64,000 nt of DNA, from NCBI GenBank assembly GCA_016839705.1, contig JAEOTR010000060.1, forward strand, positions 32,001-96,000, read 5' to 3'. Made by a program: the position numbers and the translations under genes. Of this stretch, positions 1,424 through 32,206 are shown one piece after another. Positions within the stretch are counted from its first letter, which is position 1. Each line of letters starts with the position of its first letter. Below the pieces are notes generated by a model. It saw nothing but the letters and a program-made list of their open reading frames with translations, searched no databases and had not been told where the DNA came from. Origin of the DNA: Promethearchaeota archaeon. GTDB lineage: Archaea > Asgardarchaeota > Lokiarchaeia > Sigyniarchaeales > SOKP01.

Positions 1424-1523
1424 CGGACCTGGCAGGAATCGAACCTGCGATCTTTGGATTAGAAGTCCAACGCCATATTTACCCAATTTTTAATAAAAAA
1501 CCACCAGGCTTGGCTACAGGTCC
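1424..1523 (-). tRNA. tRNA-Arg(TCT) with 25-nt D-loop intron (1479-1503)
   Basis: Minus strand GGACCTGTAGCCAAGCCTGG[TGGTTTTTTATTAAAAATTGGGTAA]ATATGGCGTTGGACTTCTAATCCAAAGATCGCAGGTTCGATTCCTGCCAGGTCCG; acceptor stem, anticodon stem TTGGA/TCCAA with TCT, T-loop GTTCGA; intron forms a bulge-helix-bulge. Confidence 0.93.
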
Positions 1524-21310: not shown

Positions 21311-21778
21311 ATGGAAAGAAAAAACAAGAGTAAAGAAACTCTCAGCAAAATAAAGGTTGAGAATCAAGAAGGGTTATCAGTATCGTATGATAGAGATGAA
21401 TTAAAGGAAAAATTCCCCCATTTAGTAACTGAAATTGCGGGAAAAAAGAAAATAGTAAAAATCGATTCAATTGAGAATAACTTTGATTTAAAGCAATTAA
21501 AGGATGAGATACCATATTCAGATGAATTAATAAACCCAGGTGCTATTGATTTTTTAAGAAGATGCACGAACAATGATGAGGCTCTAAATATCTTAGATTA
21601 TTTACTAAAACAAAAAGAAATCTCAGAAAAAGATTATAATACATATAAAGATCAGATTCTATCTGGGGAAGGACTAAAAAAATTCATTGATAAGCATGGG
21701 GGCTTTAAAGATCATGGTTATTATGAAAAGAAATATAGGAATTTGACTGGAAGCAAATTAAAACAAAGTAAAAATTAA
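21311..21778 (+). CDS. DUF2095-like archaeal protein
   Basis: FPHL..E, NPGAIDFLRRC..EA..ILDYL...EI, GYY. Confidence 0.75.
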   Translation: MERKNKSKETLSKIKVENQEGLSVSYDRDELKEKFPHLVTEIAGKKKIVKIDSIENNFDLKQLKDEIPYSDELINPGAIDFLRRCTNNDEALNILDYLLKQKEISEKDYNTYKDQILSGEGLKKFIDKHGGFKDHGYYEKKYRNLTGSKLKQSKN

Positions 21779-21831: not shown

Positions 21832-21913
21832 GAGAAGAAAAATGATGAGCTTATGACAATAAGAACTAATGCTCTTAGTTATGATTCATGTCGCCCCAAT
21901 CTGATTTTTTCTC
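21832..21913 (+). ncRNA. C/D-box guide sRNA, predicted target 23S rRNA Gm2251 (E. coli numbering)
   Basis: Terminal stem GAGAAGAAA/TTTTTTCTC, box C ATGATGA 21842-21848, C'-like ATGATTC 21881-21887, guide TGTCGCCCCAAT, box D CTGA 21901-21904. Confidence 0.8.
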
Positions 21914-21947: not shown

Positions 21948-22271
21948 TCATGAAACATTTTCTAACTGAATTTTTAATTTTAATCCTTTTTCTGTTAAAA
22001 AATGCTCCTTTTTTACTACTTTAATAAGGTTTAGTTCAAGTAAAACAGGAATTCTCCCTTTAACACACGAGATTGGCAAACCTGAAAAGAGTTTAATTGT
22101 CTCATAATTCTTCGCACCTTTATCAATAGCAAATAAGATCTCAATTCCCATATAACCTAAGAGATTTTTTAAATCTTCTTTAGATTCTTCCCCATTAATC
22201 ATTCTATTCTTGCACCAATTTTTTATAAGAAAAACTATTTTCTGCCTTGTTATCTCAGGAATTACTCCCAC
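21948..22271 (-). CDS. small winged-helix protein
   Basis: EILFAID.G..YETIK..SGLP..CV..RI..L.ELNLI...LTEKG wHTH pattern. Confidence 0.65.
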   Translation of the reverse strand: MGVIPEITRQKIVFLIKNWCKNRMINGEESKEDLKNLLGYMGIEILFAIDKGAKNYETIKLFSGLPISCVKGRIPVLLELNLIKVVKKEHFLTEKGLKLKIQLENVS

Positions 22272-23475
22272 TATTATTTGATTTCATATCATCAATGCTT
22301 AATAATGGGGATTCCTCCTCCTCTTTATCTACATCTTTTACTTTTCGACTATATTTGTTGGTAACGACTGGTTCAGATTCTTTTGGTAAGAGTTTTCTCA
22401 TCCATTCAGGGAAAGCAGTGGTAATTTGCAAGTTTGTCTTTAAAACTATATATGTTTCCCCATTATTATTTAGTTCTTCAATCACATCATATTTCTTTAA
22501 AAATTCAATTGTTTCCATCAATGAATCTAATGACTTTTTTGTAACTAGTTTTGGTAGCATATCTTTTAAAATCAAACCGTTTCTTAATTCCCTAAGCACA
22601 CTATACTTTTTAGGATCAGCCATTATTTGAAATAGAGTAAAAGTATCTTCTTTTAATTCATAATCGCTTTTTTTCTCATATTTACTATAGTATTCTTGGA
22701 CCTTCGGTAAGAGCAAATCAATTAATTCAGGTTTATCATCAATATACTCAATAACTGTATCCGGGGGAATTCTTTCCGCATTAACTTCCTTTAATAATAG
22801 GACATATTTTTCTACCAAACCAATTTGATTAATAAATATAAATTGCTTTTCAACTAAACTATTAATTATTTCCTCAAAATCTTTATCTGGAAACTTTTTG
22901 AAAAACCATTCACGTAACCACTCTAAAGTTATCGGACCCTTGGATAGCATTTCTAAAGTATCAAACATATGTTTCTCATTTAGTAAAATTGCAATTTTCT
23001 GTTCTTCCGTTTTCTCCCTTGTTTCTTCGTCGATAGTCTTGTATAAGTTTTTTAACCATGCCTTTACAAATGCCTCATTCTTTAATATTATCTCTTTTTC
23101 ATTTTCATGATAATTTAAATCATTTATATAGAACGCAGTATAAATCTCTTCATTTGATTGCAACTGCTCTGAGAATTCGATACATAGATCCGAAATTTTT
23201 TCCTCAATTTCTGGTAATATTTGTTGGTCCACGACTGTAGAAACCATCAACATTTCTTTATTTCCACGAGCCCAGTCTGAGTGAATTTCAAAATAATAAT
23301 TCATTGATTTTAGATTTTCAAAAGAGTGAGTGAAAAAACCTTCATTAAATTGTTGATCCATGATATTAGCTAACTTTACTGCTAAATCTTTGTCTAAAGC
23401 GTTTTTTGGATACGAATTAAAAACTAATGGTCCGATCTTGCGATGAAAATATGATATGGCTACAATAGTCTTCAA
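22255..23475 (-). CDS. longin/uDENN (NPRL2-like) domain protein with C-terminal winged-helix-like repeats
   Basis: N-terminal ISYFHRKIGPLVFNSYP (F-H-x-x-x-G-P motif), YFEI.S..ARG..E; two later wHTH-like segments. Confidence 0.65.
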   Translation of the reverse strand: MKTIVAISYFHRKIGPLVFNSYPKNALDKDLAVKLANIMDQQFNEGFFTHSFENLKSMNYYFEIHSDWARGNKEMLMVSTVVDQQILPEIEEKISDLCIEFSEQLQSNEEIYTAFYINDLNYHENEKEIILKNEAFVKAWLKNLYKTIDEETREKTEEQKIAILLNEKHMFDTLEMLSKGPITLEWLREWFFKKFPDKDFEEIINSLVEKQFIFINQIGLVEKYVLLLKEVNAERIPPDTVIEYIDDKPELIDLLLPKVQEYYSKYEKKSDYELKEDTFTLFQIMADPKKYSVLRELRNGLILKDMLPKLVTKKSLDSLMETIEFLKKYDVIEELNNNGETYIVLKTNLQITTAFPEWMRKLLPKESEPVVTNKYSRKVKDVDKEEEESPLLSIDDMKSNNSGSNS

Positions 23476-27751: not shown

Positions 27752-30700
27752 TTGACTTACATTAAAAAAATATCTATGACTGGTTTCAAATCATTTGGAG
27801 ACCGAACAGTAACGATAAAACTTTCAAGTGGGTTTACTTGCATAGTGGGGCCTAATGGGGCAGGGAAATCCAATATTATAGATGCCCTGTGCTTCGCCTT
27901 AGGAAGGTTAAGTAAAAAAACAATGAGAGCTAAAAGTCTTGAAGATTTAATTTTTGCTGGATCTCGTGGTAAAAATCCGTCTCAAAGAGCCTCAGTCACA
28001 ATGTATTTTGATAACTCTGATAATGTGTTTCCAGGGGGCACGGATACTTTTGAAATCACACGTACAATAAAAAGAGGAGGGGGTGGCGGTTATAAGATGA
28101 ATGGAGCAAAAACCACCCGTCAACAAATTCTGAACGCATTAGCCGCAGCAAATATTGATCCTGATGGTAGCAATCAATTTGTCTTACAAGGAAAGATTGT
28201 TGAACTTACACATATGGATACTGAAAACAGAAGATTATTCATTGAAGACCTTATAGGACTTCAAAAATACGATGAGATGAAAGATTCTACCTTAAAGGAA
28301 TTAGAAAAAGCAGAAAGAGATTTGGGACAATTTGAAGCAATTTTCAAAGAAGTATCCTCTCAACTTAAGAAAGTTGAAAAAGAGAAAAATGATGCATTGC
28401 TTTGGAAGGAGTTTGATGAACAAATAAACTTTTTAAATTCTCAATTGATTGCGCTAAAGATTTCAAAACTGAGAGAAGAAGAGGATGAATTAGAAAAGAA
28501 AATTGAATCTACTTTAAAAATCATTGAAGAATTAAAGGAAAAAATTAATAGGCAAGAGGATGTACTTACACAAGAATCACTTGTTATGGATAATATTCAA
28601 AAAGCAATAAGCGAGAAGGAAAAAGAAAGAGAAGAAATAAATGAGGTTATTACTCAATTAAAAACAAAAATTTCCTCTAACAACACAACCACAAATTACG
28701 CCAAAAAGTCAATAGAAAAACTGAACACTGAAATAGAGTCCCTATCAAGTTTACAGATGAAGCTTGAAGAAGGCCAAACTATTAATACCTTAATTGAAGG
28801 GGTCGTAAATGAAATTAGTGAATCCGAAAATAAAATCGAAGAAGCTAAAAAAGAAATAGAAAAAAGACAACAAACCCAATCAGAATTAGATATTAAAATT
28901 AAAGACAATGAAGAAGGAAAATCATCATTTAATAGTGAAATCTCTAAAATACAACAGAAGATTTCATCAAATAATGCTCAAATTAAAGTTCTTAAAGATA
29001 ATATTAAGAAAAATGAAGATAAGAAGATTAAGTTAGAAACAGAATTGAATAAGCTAAAAAAAGATGCTGAGAGTATAGATGAAGCCATTGATGATGCAAA
29101 AAAGGTAGAAAATGCAATAAGATCACAGATAGATAATTTAAAGACTCAAGTCGTTGAGGAAAATCAAAAGCAAAAAGATCTGGAAAATAAAATAAATAGT
29201 TTTCAAGAAAGTAAAAACAATTTAAATACAAAGTTAACAAATTTACAATCTAATTTATCTTCTCTTACTACAGAGATAAGTATGAATAATGGGAGTATTC
29301 AAGATTTAAATAATAAAAAGATAGAAACTGAAACAAAGATCCAGGAATTGAGCGATGGTAAGGATACAGAAATAGTAGTAAAAGGTTTATTAACTGAAAA
29401 TGAAAAAATCAATAAGGAAATAAAAGAATTAAAGGGAAAATTAAAAGAAGAAAACTCAACCTATAAAAAAAATGAACAAGACCTAGAATTACTAAAAGTG
29501 AAAAAAGATTCATTCGGATCTGAAATTAATGATAATAGAGGAAAAATTGATACTAGAAACACAGAATTAAAAATTTATACAAAAGAATTAACTACACTTG
29601 AACGGGAAAAAAATAGCTTAGAATTACAAGTAAACACTTTAAACAATAATATTTCAAAAATAGGAGACGAAATAGAAAAATTTAGCGTGAAAAAAGATAA
29701 CATTCAAGGTCGTTTAGAAGACCTTACAAAAGAGAAAGATAATGTATTAAAGAAAATTGAATCTTCCGAAATGGAATATGAGAAGAGCACTAGAGATATT
29801 ACCGGAATTCTACAGATATTAAACATGCTTACTCAAAACATTAATATCTCTGTTGAATCAATAAAAGGCAATATACAACAATCAAACGCAGAGGCAATCG
29901 AGACCTCTGCTGAAGACTTTAAGAAATATGTTCTTGATGTTGTAGATATAATGAAAACTGTTGAAGAAATTGGCAGTGATACAGAACTAGCAACTGAAAT
30001 GTCATTAATGCTTAAATCCATTATGAAAACTCTTAAGTTATTTACTGATAATGCAGATGATACAATTGAACAGTTGATAGAGAAGGTTAAAGAATCAGCG
30101 GACATCGAAATTCAATCCTCAACATTAACATTTGATAATTTCGTTCAAGATTTAATGGAAATCCTTGAAAATGTCTATCTTTCTTTAAGAAAATTAACAA
30201 TGTCGAAGAGTCAAGAATTATATAAACAATTGGAGGAGATATCTGAAAATATAAACTCCCAAACTGATGATTTTAATAATATCGAAAAGAAATTAACAGA
30301 AAATAATATTCAGAACAAGCATGATACTGAAAATGTCTCGTCATTTAATCGCAGACTTGATGAAATTAATAAAAGGAATCAAGAATTAAACGAGAGAATG
30401 AAAAAATCAAATCAAGAAATAAATGAAAGAAATGGAATCATTAATGAGAGGCAAAAGGAGTCAGCAAATATTGACCAAGAAATACAACAATTAGAGGGAG
30501 TTAAAGAGACTTATTGGGAAAATATTTCAAAAATTCAAGATAATATCGAGAAAAAACAAATAGATTTAGAAAATTTGAGAAATAAAATACAAGAATTGCA
30601 TGGAATCCAAAATTTGTTTGAAAATATAGTGGAAATAGAGGAAAATATTCAAAAATTAAATAGCATAATTGATGAAAAGAAAAATTTAATTATTAATTCA

Positions 30701-32206
30701 CAAGAAGGTATAGAAAAGAATCAGGAAGAACAAAATTCTTTACAAAAAGAAATTGATGCTCTCGTTTTACAAAAAGAAAATTTTTGGGAAATAACAAGCA
30801 ATATACAAAAACAGATAGAAGATAAAAATAAAGAACTAGAAGAAAATATGGATCGATTGAGAGCACTTGAAAATGTTATGAGGATCATTAATACAATTGA
30901 AGATATAAAAAATGAAAATAATGAGGCAAAGGATAATATTGAAGCTTGTTTAAGCCAAACAAATGGGTTCAATTCACAAGTAGATGAGATTCAAATCAAA
31001 GTAGATCAAGCCCAAAAAATAATAGATTCATTCAGAAGTGATAAAACTAAAGAATTAGAATCACAAAAAACAGCCCAAAAAGAATTAAATAAATTTAATA
31101 AAGATTTACAAAAACAACAAAAAAAATTAAATGAGTTAAATAAGAATAAAGAAAGAGAGCAAAAAATTGATGAATTGAACCAAGAAATAAAAGATACTCA
31201 AAAGCAAATTGAATCGGTATTAAAAGAATTGGAAACATTTAAAGGTGATTTAGACTCAGAAAATGAGAAAAAAGATGCTAAACAAGAGGAAATTGATAAA
31301 CTAGCTAAAGAAAAGGATGAGTCTTGGAAGAAACAGAAGCAACACCAAAAAATGATTACGGACTTAAAGTCAGATCTCTCAATGGAGAATTCAAAGAAGA
31401 ATAACTTTGAATCTAAAAAAATTATCTGTGCTGATCAAATAGAAACTTTATTCCAAAGGTCTAAGGATTATGGCTCTTTACCACCAGTTACAGAAACTCT
31501 TTCAGAAAGCGATTTACAATCTGATATTGTAGAAGCTGCAAATAAGAAAAAAGTCCTTGAACCTGTTAACTTAAAAGCAATCGAACAGTATGATACTGTA
31601 AAAGAAAGATTTGATGAAATTGATATGCGTAGACAAACAATTCAGAGAGAAAGAAAATCGATTTTAGACGCTATAGATAAAATCGAGTTGGAAAAAACAC
31701 GTACATTTATGAAAGCTTATCATGAAATTAATCGTGAATTTTCGCATGTATTCCAGAAATTATCTCCCGGGGGTTCAGCAAAAATGATATTAGATCGTCC
31801 GGATAAACCATTTGAAGGGGGAATTAGTATAGAAGCGAGACCAAGAGGAAAAAAAATAAGTTCATTAGAAATTTTAAGTGGCGGTGAGAAAACACTCGTG
31901 GCGCTCTCGTTTATCTTTGCCGTCCAGGAGTTCTATCCCGCGCCTTTTTACGTTTTAGATGAGATCGATGCAGCCCTTGATGGTCCTAATGTACATCGAA
32001 CCTCTGAGGTTATTAGAGAATTTTCTCAACAAGCACAATTTTTAGTAATCAGCCACCGTGAAGAAAATATTGTAAATTCAGACAGAATTTATGGCGTATC
32101 CATGCAACAGTCTGGTGTAACCGATATTTTTAGCGTTGATTTAGAAGAAGAGGCTAAAAGGCTTTTAGAACTTGAAGATATCGAACCAACAATTACAGAA
32201 AATTAA
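27752..32206 (+). CDS. smc: SMC protein, elongated, canonical hinge not recognisable
   Basis: GFKSF, GPNGAGKSN, QG Q-loop, PVNLKA, LSGGEK, LDEIDAALD, ISH; followed by scpA and scpB. Confidence 0.95.
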   Translation: MTYIKKISMTGFKSFGDRTVTIKLSSGFTCIVGPNGAGKSNIIDALCFALGRLSKKTMRAKSLEDLIFAGSRGKNPSQRASVTMYFDNSDNVFPGGTDTFEITRTIKRGGGGGYKMNGAKTTRQQILNALAAANIDPDGSNQFVLQGKIVELTHMDTENRRLFIEDLIGLQKYDEMKDSTLKELEKAERDLGQFEAIFKEVSSQLKKVEKEKNDALLWKEFDEQINFLNSQLIALKISKLREEEDELEKKIESTLKIIEELKEKINRQEDVLTQESLVMDNIQKAISEKEKEREEINEVITQLKTKISSNNTTTNYAKKSIEKLNTEIESLSSLQMKLEEGQTINTLIEGVVNEISESENKIEEAKKEIEKRQQTQSELDIKIKDNEEGKSSFNSEISKIQQKISSNNAQIKVLKDNIKKNEDKKIKLETELNKLKKDAESIDEAIDDAKKVENAIRSQIDNLKTQVVEENQKQKDLENKINSFQESKNNLNTKLTNLQSNLSSLTTEISMNNGSIQDLNNKKIETETKIQELSDGKDTEIVVKGLLTENEKINKEIKELKGKLKEENSTYKKNEQDLELLKVKKDSFGSEINDNRGKIDTRNTELKIYTKELTTLEREKNSLELQVNTLNNNISKIGDEIEKFSVKKDNIQGRLEDLTKEKDNVLKKIESSEMEYEKSTRDITGILQILNMLTQNINISVESIKGNIQQSNAEAIETSAEDFKKYVLDVVDIMKTVEEIGSDTELATEMSLMLKSIMKTLKLFTDNADDTIEQLIEKVKESADIEIQSSTLTFDNFVQDLMEILENVYLSLRKLTMSKSQELYKQLEEISENINSQTDDFNNIEKKLTENNIQNKHDTENVSSFNRRLDEINKRNQELNERMKKSNQEINERNGIINERQKESANIDQEIQQLEGVKETYWENISKIQDNIEKKQIDLENLRNKIQELHGIQNLFENIVEIEENIQKLNSIIDEKKNLIINSQEGIEKNQEEQNSLQKEIDALVLQKENFWEITSNIQKQIEDKNKELEENMDRLRALENVMRIINTIEDIKNENNEAKDNIEACLSQTNGFNSQVDEIQIKVDQAQKIIDSFRSDKTKELESQKTAQKELNKFNKDLQKQQKKLNELNKNKEREQKIDELNQEIKDTQKQIESVLKELETFKGDLDSENEKKDAKQEEIDKLAKEKDESWKKQKQHQKMITDLKSDLSMENSKKNNFESKKIICADQIETLFQRSKDYGSLPPVTETLSESDLQSDIVEAANKKKVLEPVNLKAIEQYDTVKERFDEIDMRRQTIQRERKSILDAIDKIELEKTRTFMKAYHEINREFSHVFQKLSPGGSAKMILDRPDKPFEGGISIEARPRGKKISSLEILSGGEKTLVALSFIFAVQEFYPAPFYVLDEIDAALDGPNVHRTSEVIREFSQQAQFLVISHREENIVNSDRIYGVSMQQSGVTDIFSVDLEEEAKRLLELEDIEPTITEN

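Follow-up and report, generated by a model that had tools for sequence, protein, structure and literature searches.

We propose that positions 21832-21913 (plus strand) of the window, the whole 64,000-nucleotide stretch of DNA that was analysed, encode a dual-guide archaeal box C/D sRNA made of two K-turn modules, in which the D guide is directed to the P-loop and the D´ guide to helix 89 of 23S rRNA. We put the probability of this reading at roughly 85%, and most likely the sRNA guides sugar methylation of two nucleotides at the ribosomal catalytic centre. The core of this result is ordinary, another archaeal C/D guide for a near-universal modification. What is new is a conserved hairpin loop with a candidate third, eukaryote-style contact with rRNA.

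An intergenic box C/D sRNA with two K-turns

The sRNA is flanked by a DUF2095 gene on one side and by a convergent winged-helix gene on the other, and inspection of the sequence placed every element at the positions listed in Table 1. The first-pass annotation had reported a terminal stem, a box C, a box D and a guide directly before box D, all of which are where it had put them, the guide being 12 nt long and spanning 21889-21900. The terminal boxes are in K-turn register with their closing stem, for which the pair probabilities in the host fold are 0.69-0.99. The spacers from C to D´ and from C´ to D are 12 and 13 nt, respectively, and about 12 nt is the norm for archaeal C/D sRNAs (PMC7229835). 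The internal inverted repeat that had also been reported is present (21864-69/21875-80). The D´/C´ half that contains it had been called degenerate, a description that does not hold, as box D´, a 5-bp stem, a 3-nt bulge and box C´ form an orderly K-turn that carries a second guide. Both of these boxes are non-consensus, yet the GA/GA core and the 3-nt bulge are retained, and the motif is closed by a stem (K-turn) rather than by the usual K-loop.

Table 1. Elements of the sRNA and flanking genes, in window coordinates
Feature	Position	Strand	Description
Terminal stem, 5´ arm	21832-21840	+	Closes the C/D K-turn; two-sided changes at all 5 counted pairs
Box C	21842-21848	+	Consensus RUGAUGA; invariant in 40 aligned homologs
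D´ guide, 12 nt	21849-21860	+	Predicted to pair with 23S helix 89, E. coli 2456-2467
D´+5 base of the D´ guide	A21856		Selects U2460 (predicted); best 23S+16S site in G137
Box D´	21861-21864	+	AAGA, non-consensus; CUGA, UUGA or CAGA in some homologs
Internal hairpin	21865-21879	+	5-bp stem 21865-69/21875-79 closing the C´/D´ K-turn
Hairpin loop UGCUC	21870-21874	+	Putative third antisense element, 23S ~2329-2333 (helix 85)
Box C´	21881-21887	+	Non-consensus; K-turn bulge, 3 nt, 21880-21882
D spacer/guide	21888-21900	+	21890-21898 predicted to pair with P-loop 2249-2257; D+5 = C21896, selecting G2251
Box D	21901-21904	+	CUGA; invariant in aligned homologs
Terminal stem, 3´ arm	21905-21913	+	Pairs with 21832-21840
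Upstream DUF2095 gene	21311-21778	+	Pfam PF09868; possible host transcript (from context)
Small neighbouring winged-helix gene	21948-22271	-	Adjoins the sRNA in three families

A pattern of box C, guide and box D had a single match in the window and no match in 100 shuffles, and a genome-wide C/D scan with decoy rRNAs ranked the locus first among 767 candidates. No sRNA family reached its gathering threshold in an Rfam scan of the window; 13 C/D snoRNA models matched weakly below threshold, all on the same strand. Judged by every feature of the sequence that was examined, this is a real, conserved box C/D sRNA and a member of the known class.

Conservation and covariation across a Lokiarchaeia order

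Across most of one Lokiarchaeia order, the sRNA is single-copy and syntenic; about 100 species carry it, among them Ca. Lokiarchaeum ossiferum, Promethearchaeum syntrophicum MK-D1 and Ca. Harpocratesius repetitus. The host genome (3.36 Mb, 31% G+C, 93% complete) is of Lokiarchaeia type. An exact pattern was present in 44 of 61 genomes (the host and relatives), with no match for a reversed control, and in 46 of the 53 genomes of the host genus. A covariance model, which gave one copy in the host genome, recovered the RNA from 29/32 further genomes of the same family and 5/5 of a sister family, most of them missed by the exact pattern; four genomes of another, fourth family, 63-88% complete, gave no match. 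A collection-wide scan brought together 101 stretches with the sRNA.

Box C, box D and the cores of both guides do not vary among 40 aligned homologs, and the terminal and internal stems have two-sided changes at all 10 pairs. This covariation amounts to 96 two-sided cells, compared with 29.7 in shuffles and 6-31 in slid controls. The internal stem is paired in 91.8% of cells, with two-sided changes at all five of its pairs.

The DUF2095 gene lies upstream of the sRNA in nearly all of the same-family loci examined, and the winged-helix gene is found next to it in three families. Within the family, the winged-helix gene and a 406-aa gene assigned to no Pfam family (together 21948-23475) stay beside the sRNA. 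In other Asgard families, guides to the P-loop turn up here and there, combined with different D´ arms. Several records that contain this RNA are titled Nanopelagicaceae bacterium or Thor, Hermod, Odin or Hod archaea (L237, L193, L195, L196, L198); some of them match genomes placed in the host's family, so these depositor labels look unreliable.

The D guide and G2251 of the P-loop

The host assembly contains no 23S gene, and only the 3´ end of 16S rRNA is present. Pairing was therefore read from relatives, chiefly G137, the closest one, in which the sRNA core differs from that of the host by a single base. A search of five relatives with Rfam models found no 23S rRNA, and the relatives' genes were recovered with a DNA query instead. 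In the G137 23S gene (L119), helix 69 and the neighbourhood of helix 91 contain short insertions of ~40-60 nt that may be archaeal rRNA introns.

In 30 same-family 23S sequences, all with an identical P-loop, the D guide can form a 9-bp duplex with one G-U from D+3 to D+11, with an A-C mismatch at D+2. The first-pass annotation was right about the site of pairing and overstated its extent, which is these 9 bp and not 12-13. It had also predicted a U at the 2248 equivalent. The base is C in all 30 same-family sequences and U in no relative, so U2248 in the host is unlikely; in the sister family, G2248 is matched by a C at D+2. The D+5 register, which it had placed on the G2251 equivalent, was borne out and is kept in 70 of 73 parsed rows.

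The P-loop is the best site for the D guide in the 23S and 16S rRNAs of G137, but shuffled guides scored equally well in 51/500 trials. A single duplex is thus not significant, and it is conservation and register that carry the case. Archaeal C/D RNPs work with 9-10 pairs (PMC7229835), and Dennis et al. (2015) required nine consecutive Watson-Crick pairs (PMC4644070), a length below which the host duplex, as read from the relatives, falls. The sRNA is very probably a guide for Gm2251, a prediction in which we have high confidence.

Three divergent homologs (G049, G042 and G046; L176, L177 and L178), all with a UGCCC loop, have a D guide with a G-U and a G-A mismatch beside the G2251 pair and longer distal pairing.

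A conserved hairpin loop and helix 85

The hairpin between boxes D´ and C´ ends in the loop UGCUC in 80 of 91 long-hairpin homologs, although its stem varies. For each of 20 genomes, the Watson-Crick match between the genome's own loop and domain V was scored over 642 five-base windows, in a sample that excludes G046, G049, G051, G053 and G012, from which 23S domain V was not recovered. Only one window (1/642), at 23S ~2329-2333 in helix 85, fits all 20 cognate pairs. Two genomes carry compensatory changes: the loop is UACUC and the site GAGUA in G090, and the loop is UGCCC and the site GGGCA in G042; the background rates of these two changes are 0.031 and 0.076, respectively. The chance of a coincidental match would be roughly 1%, an estimate from two events only, made without a tree and with three or four conserved candidate sites. 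In the host, opening of the stem would lengthen the match to 9 bp.

Other candidate partners, just upstream of the P-loop, in helix 81, helix 89 and the 2170 region, and at two sites in domain II, fail in one or both of the variant genomes. A loose loop pattern applied phylum-wide gave only noise outside the order.

From these comparisons, we give slightly better than even odds that the loop pairs with 23S ~2329-2333 as a putative third contact. The alternative, to which we assign odds a little short of even, is that UGCUC is kept for structure, for protein binding or through shared ancestry, and that its match to helix 85 is coincidental. The match is only 5-6 nt, with seven identical 5-mers in the G137 23S rRNA, and the contact depends on two change events; moreover, five loops fit less well (AGCUC in four, UUCUC in one). 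The site is also ~80 nt downstream of G2251, not adjacent to the methylated position and thus farther away than the sites in yeast. A loop without a partner would not explain why the stem is free to vary while the loop is not, the two background rates are low for changes that both had to occur, and two other invariant candidate sites are unchanged in G090. The loop is absent from P. syntrophicum, L. ossiferum and H. repetitus, which counts towards this alternative; however, species with a third sequence at ~2329-2333, the cultured ones among them, have short hairpins that lack the loop, such that the loop-less species also differ at the helix 85 site. These loop-less cultured species are the natural comparison for the proposed contact.

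The D´ guide and U2460 of helix 89

In G137, 11 of the 12 positions of the D´ guide can pair with the 5´ strand of helix 89, with a C-A mismatch at 2463 and with D´+5 at U2460, a number that was verified against the E. coli row in the alignment of Dennis et al. (2015). Helix 89 is the best site for this guide in the 23S and 16S rRNAs of G137, and shuffled guides scored equally well in 98/500 trials. The energies of cognate guide and helix 89 pairs sum to -173, compared with a mean of -138 when the partners are permuted (0/20000 permutations reached the cognate value), a result that overstates the case because the genomes are kin. The guide of G133 pairs at 12/12 positions with its own helix 89, and the divergent guide of G042 gives -12.3 kcal/mol at its own site and -5.0 kcal/mol at the host-type site. 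The switch in G042 involves all three elements at once, each changing along with its own 23S site. Since the D´ guide variants follow their own helix 89, the RNA appears to be double-guide. The first-pass annotation had described it as single-guide and eukaryote-like, and the single-guide part is contradicted by a D´ guide that is 12 nt long, conserved and covarying with helix 89. What may survive of the eukaryote-like trait is that the D´-C´ insert is a hairpin with a conserved loop that apparently pairs with rRNA, as in yeast snoRNAs.

The register of the D´ guide is less constant. Among 99 distinct homologs, the base pairing with U2460 is at +5 in 68, at +8 to +10 in 29 and at +4 in two, and in the ~30% of homologs with a register slipped by 3-5 nt, U2460 is not at D´+5. 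Methylation of U2460 would thus not be universal even if the pairing is. In genera g18, g20, g21 and g24 (L138-L164), the spacing from the helix 89 guide to box D´ is longer by 3-5 bases, which places D´+5 at ~2455-2457 with the helix 89 complementarity retained. The host and those homologs of its genus that were aligned keep the +5 register and have a Watson-Crick pair at the target, U2460, which is the position where uL16 contacts helix 89 in yeast (PMC2577338). We consider it probable, with somewhat less assurance than for G2251, that the sRNA directs Um2460.

This variation in register is also the main argument for an RNA that is functionally single-guide, in which the D guide methylates G2251 and the D´ arm is a helix 89 tether or folding chaperone that leaves U2460 unmethylated. 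The helix 89 pairing persists even in genera whose D´ register no longer predicts Um2460; indeed, departures from the +5 register leave the complementarity intact or better, the D register almost never shifts, and both D´ and C´ are non-consensus. We nevertheless regard this possibility as unlikely, given the +5 register and the Watson-Crick pair at U2460 in the host's genus. The GA/GA core and stem of the inner K-turn are intact, divergent C´/D´ motifs are active in yeast (PMC3116282), and U2460 is a predicted target in other archaea.

Decidedly less probable is that the D´ guide aims elsewhere, at helix 71 near 1946, 16S rRNA or a tRNA such as tRNA-Met, or that pairing with the D-spacer 5´ end accounts for its conservation. 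Helix 71 offers an 8-bp match of similar energy in one family, but in the host's family the host guide gives -8.2 kcal/mol there versus -13.1 kcal/mol, and helix 71 does not track the guide variants; covariation led us to reject U1946 as the target. No better site was found in 16S rRNA or tRNA; the best duplexes with real tRNAs are weaker, and elongator tRNA-Met offers only 6 bp. As for pairing between the guides, the D´ guide contains an invariant GAC and the D spacer an invariant GUC that could pair with it, but these pairs have a probability of only 0.02-0.04 in the host fold and carry no covariation because they never vary.

More precisely, the D´ guide core at 21854-21858 is complementary to the D-spacer 5´ end at 21889-21893, both invariant in 40 homologs, including those in which the rRNA base opposite the D-spacer U does not match it. 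That the locus is no RNA gene at all, and is a chance or terminator-like intergenic motif, is scarcely credible: no Rfam family reaches threshold, but the boxes are invariant, two stems covary, the D+5 register is fixed and the RNA is present in ~100 species.

Modification machinery and other RNAs of the host

The genes for fibrillarin and Nop5 are adjacent on contig C25 of the host, which also has two L7Ae-family genes, a family taken here to cover both L7Ae and L30e. No RlmB ortholog was found in the host genome, where the RlmB model scored ~40 bits against a cut-off of 160; as the genome is 93% complete, this means not found rather than absent. The sole SpoU-family protein of the host is TrmJ-like.

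The C/D scan of the host gave one other candidate with perfect boxes and a long terminal stem, and the rest scored like decoys, in a scan that would miss degenerate or gene-overlapping sRNAs. With only two strong C/D candidates in the genome, the guide described here may be one of very few kept. The second sRNA (G000:C81:89409-89469, plus strand; L130) has a 13-bp terminal stem, an internal hairpin and a D guide that matches 16S rRNA near E. coli 1383, and it occurs in 10/61 genomes.

Other features of the genome were observed along the way. Aragorn gave only 18 tRNA genes in the host, and a partial tRNA match at the Rfam threshold that aragorn missed, possibly intron-split, lies at 1432-1485 (minus strand) of the window. 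An elongator-type tRNA-Met lies at G000:C37:25127-25244 and has its anticodon arm interrupted by a 44-nt intron. The window also contains a very long SMC-type ORF of 1484 aa (27752-32206), preceded by an Orc1/Cdc6-like gene.

A model for the sRNA

In the mechanism we propose, which follows the established action of C/D RNPs, L7Ae would bind both K-turns and recruit Nop5-fibrillarin, and fibrillarin would 2´-O-methylate G2251, at D+5, and U2460, at D´+5, on nascent 23S rRNA. The sRNA would thereby take the place of the stand-alone bacterial enzyme RlmB. Judging from its position, the sRNA is probably released from the DUF2095 transcript at its 3´ end. With less confidence, we suggest that the hairpin loop may pair with 23S ~2329-2333 and dock the RNP on domain V, and such docking might make up for two short, imperfect guide duplexes.

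Two methylation guides and a K-turn hairpin loop on helix 85 would together make a three-armed clamp on domain V, an arrangement that we judge to have an even chance of being correct. Such a clamp could serve as an assembly chaperone for the peptidyl-transferase region, and it would be an archaeal (Asgard) example of the extra base-pairing known from eukaryotic snoRNAs.

Our literature searches found no catalogue of C/D RNAs for this archaeal group. The exact sRNA loci are now known in two Asgard species that are in culture, so that Gm2251 and Um2460 are testable there: P. syntrophicum MK-D1 (NZ_CP042905.2, about 252950-253005, minus strand) and L. ossiferum B35 (CP104013.1, about 3324173-3324228, minus strand). 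A search of sequencing runs with the homolog from H. repetitus (G044) listed no RNA dataset containing it, an outcome that is neutral as to expression.

Comparison with known guide RNAs

G2251 and U2460 are not new as sRNA targets, as both were already predicted in other archaea: Dennis et al. (2015) predicted methylation of G2251 in three of seven archaea and of U2460 in two (PMC4644070). In their alignment, G2520 (equivalent to G2251) is assigned, for example, to Mka sR13/sR45 and an sR7, and U2734 (equivalent to U2460) to an sR17 and an sR132 (PMC4644070). These sRNAs share with the Loki sRNA the target nucleotides, the D+5 rule and the dual-guide layout (PMC4644070). Their targets are predictions, from thermophiles, and their second guides hit nearby sites, such as U2544 and G2768, whereas the two sites of the Loki sRNA are 209 nt apart. 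The same authors suggest that sRNAs whose targets are distant act as chaperones (PMC4644070).

The closest parallel is Sac-sR110, a Sulfolobus acidocaldarius C/D sRNA that was identified by RNA-seq and for which the authors list no target prediction (PMC4644070, Additional file 1). When we paired it to S. acidocaldarius 23S rRNA, its two guides selected G2251 and U2460, such that this guide pair is common to the Loki sRNA and S. acidocaldarius. In Sac-sR110, however, the guides are swapped, with the P-loop on D´ and helix 89 on D, and a 3-nt D´-C´ linker (K-loop) replaces the internal hairpin, a layout that either circular permutation of a homolog or convergence might have produced.

Beyond archaea, the bacterial enzyme RlmB makes the same Gm2251 modification as a stand-alone, protein-only enzyme. 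In yeast, the corresponding Gm2619 is guided by snR67 (PMC11121408), and the plant and human counterparts (Gm2620, Gm4196) likewise reflect RNA-guided methylation of the same P-loop guanosine (PMC11121408, PMC11542601). The Rfam model for snR67/SNORD31-type RNAs (RF01177) scores 16.2 bits at the Loki sRNA against a threshold of 55, on the shared guide. The likeness is that of a common target site, and orthology is not implied. snR67 is itself double-guide, with its second site at Um2724 and not in helix 89.

The hairpin loop has its parallel in yeast, where conserved elements of 4-11 nt between D´ and C´ base-pair with rRNA and increase methylation by as much as five-fold, an effect that is strongest where guides are short (van Nues et al., 2011; PMC3116282). 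A literature search found no archaeal report of such extra base-pairing by C/D RNAs. The Loki sRNA resembles the yeast and human examples, such as the snR70 loop, in having an antisense element in a stem-loop between D´ and C´ together with short guide duplexes. In yeast, the partner lies beside the methylation site and the effect has been measured, whereas the partner proposed for the Loki loop comes from covariation and is more distant. If the loop contact is true, an Asgard lineage has a feature that was described for the snoRNAs of yeast and human.
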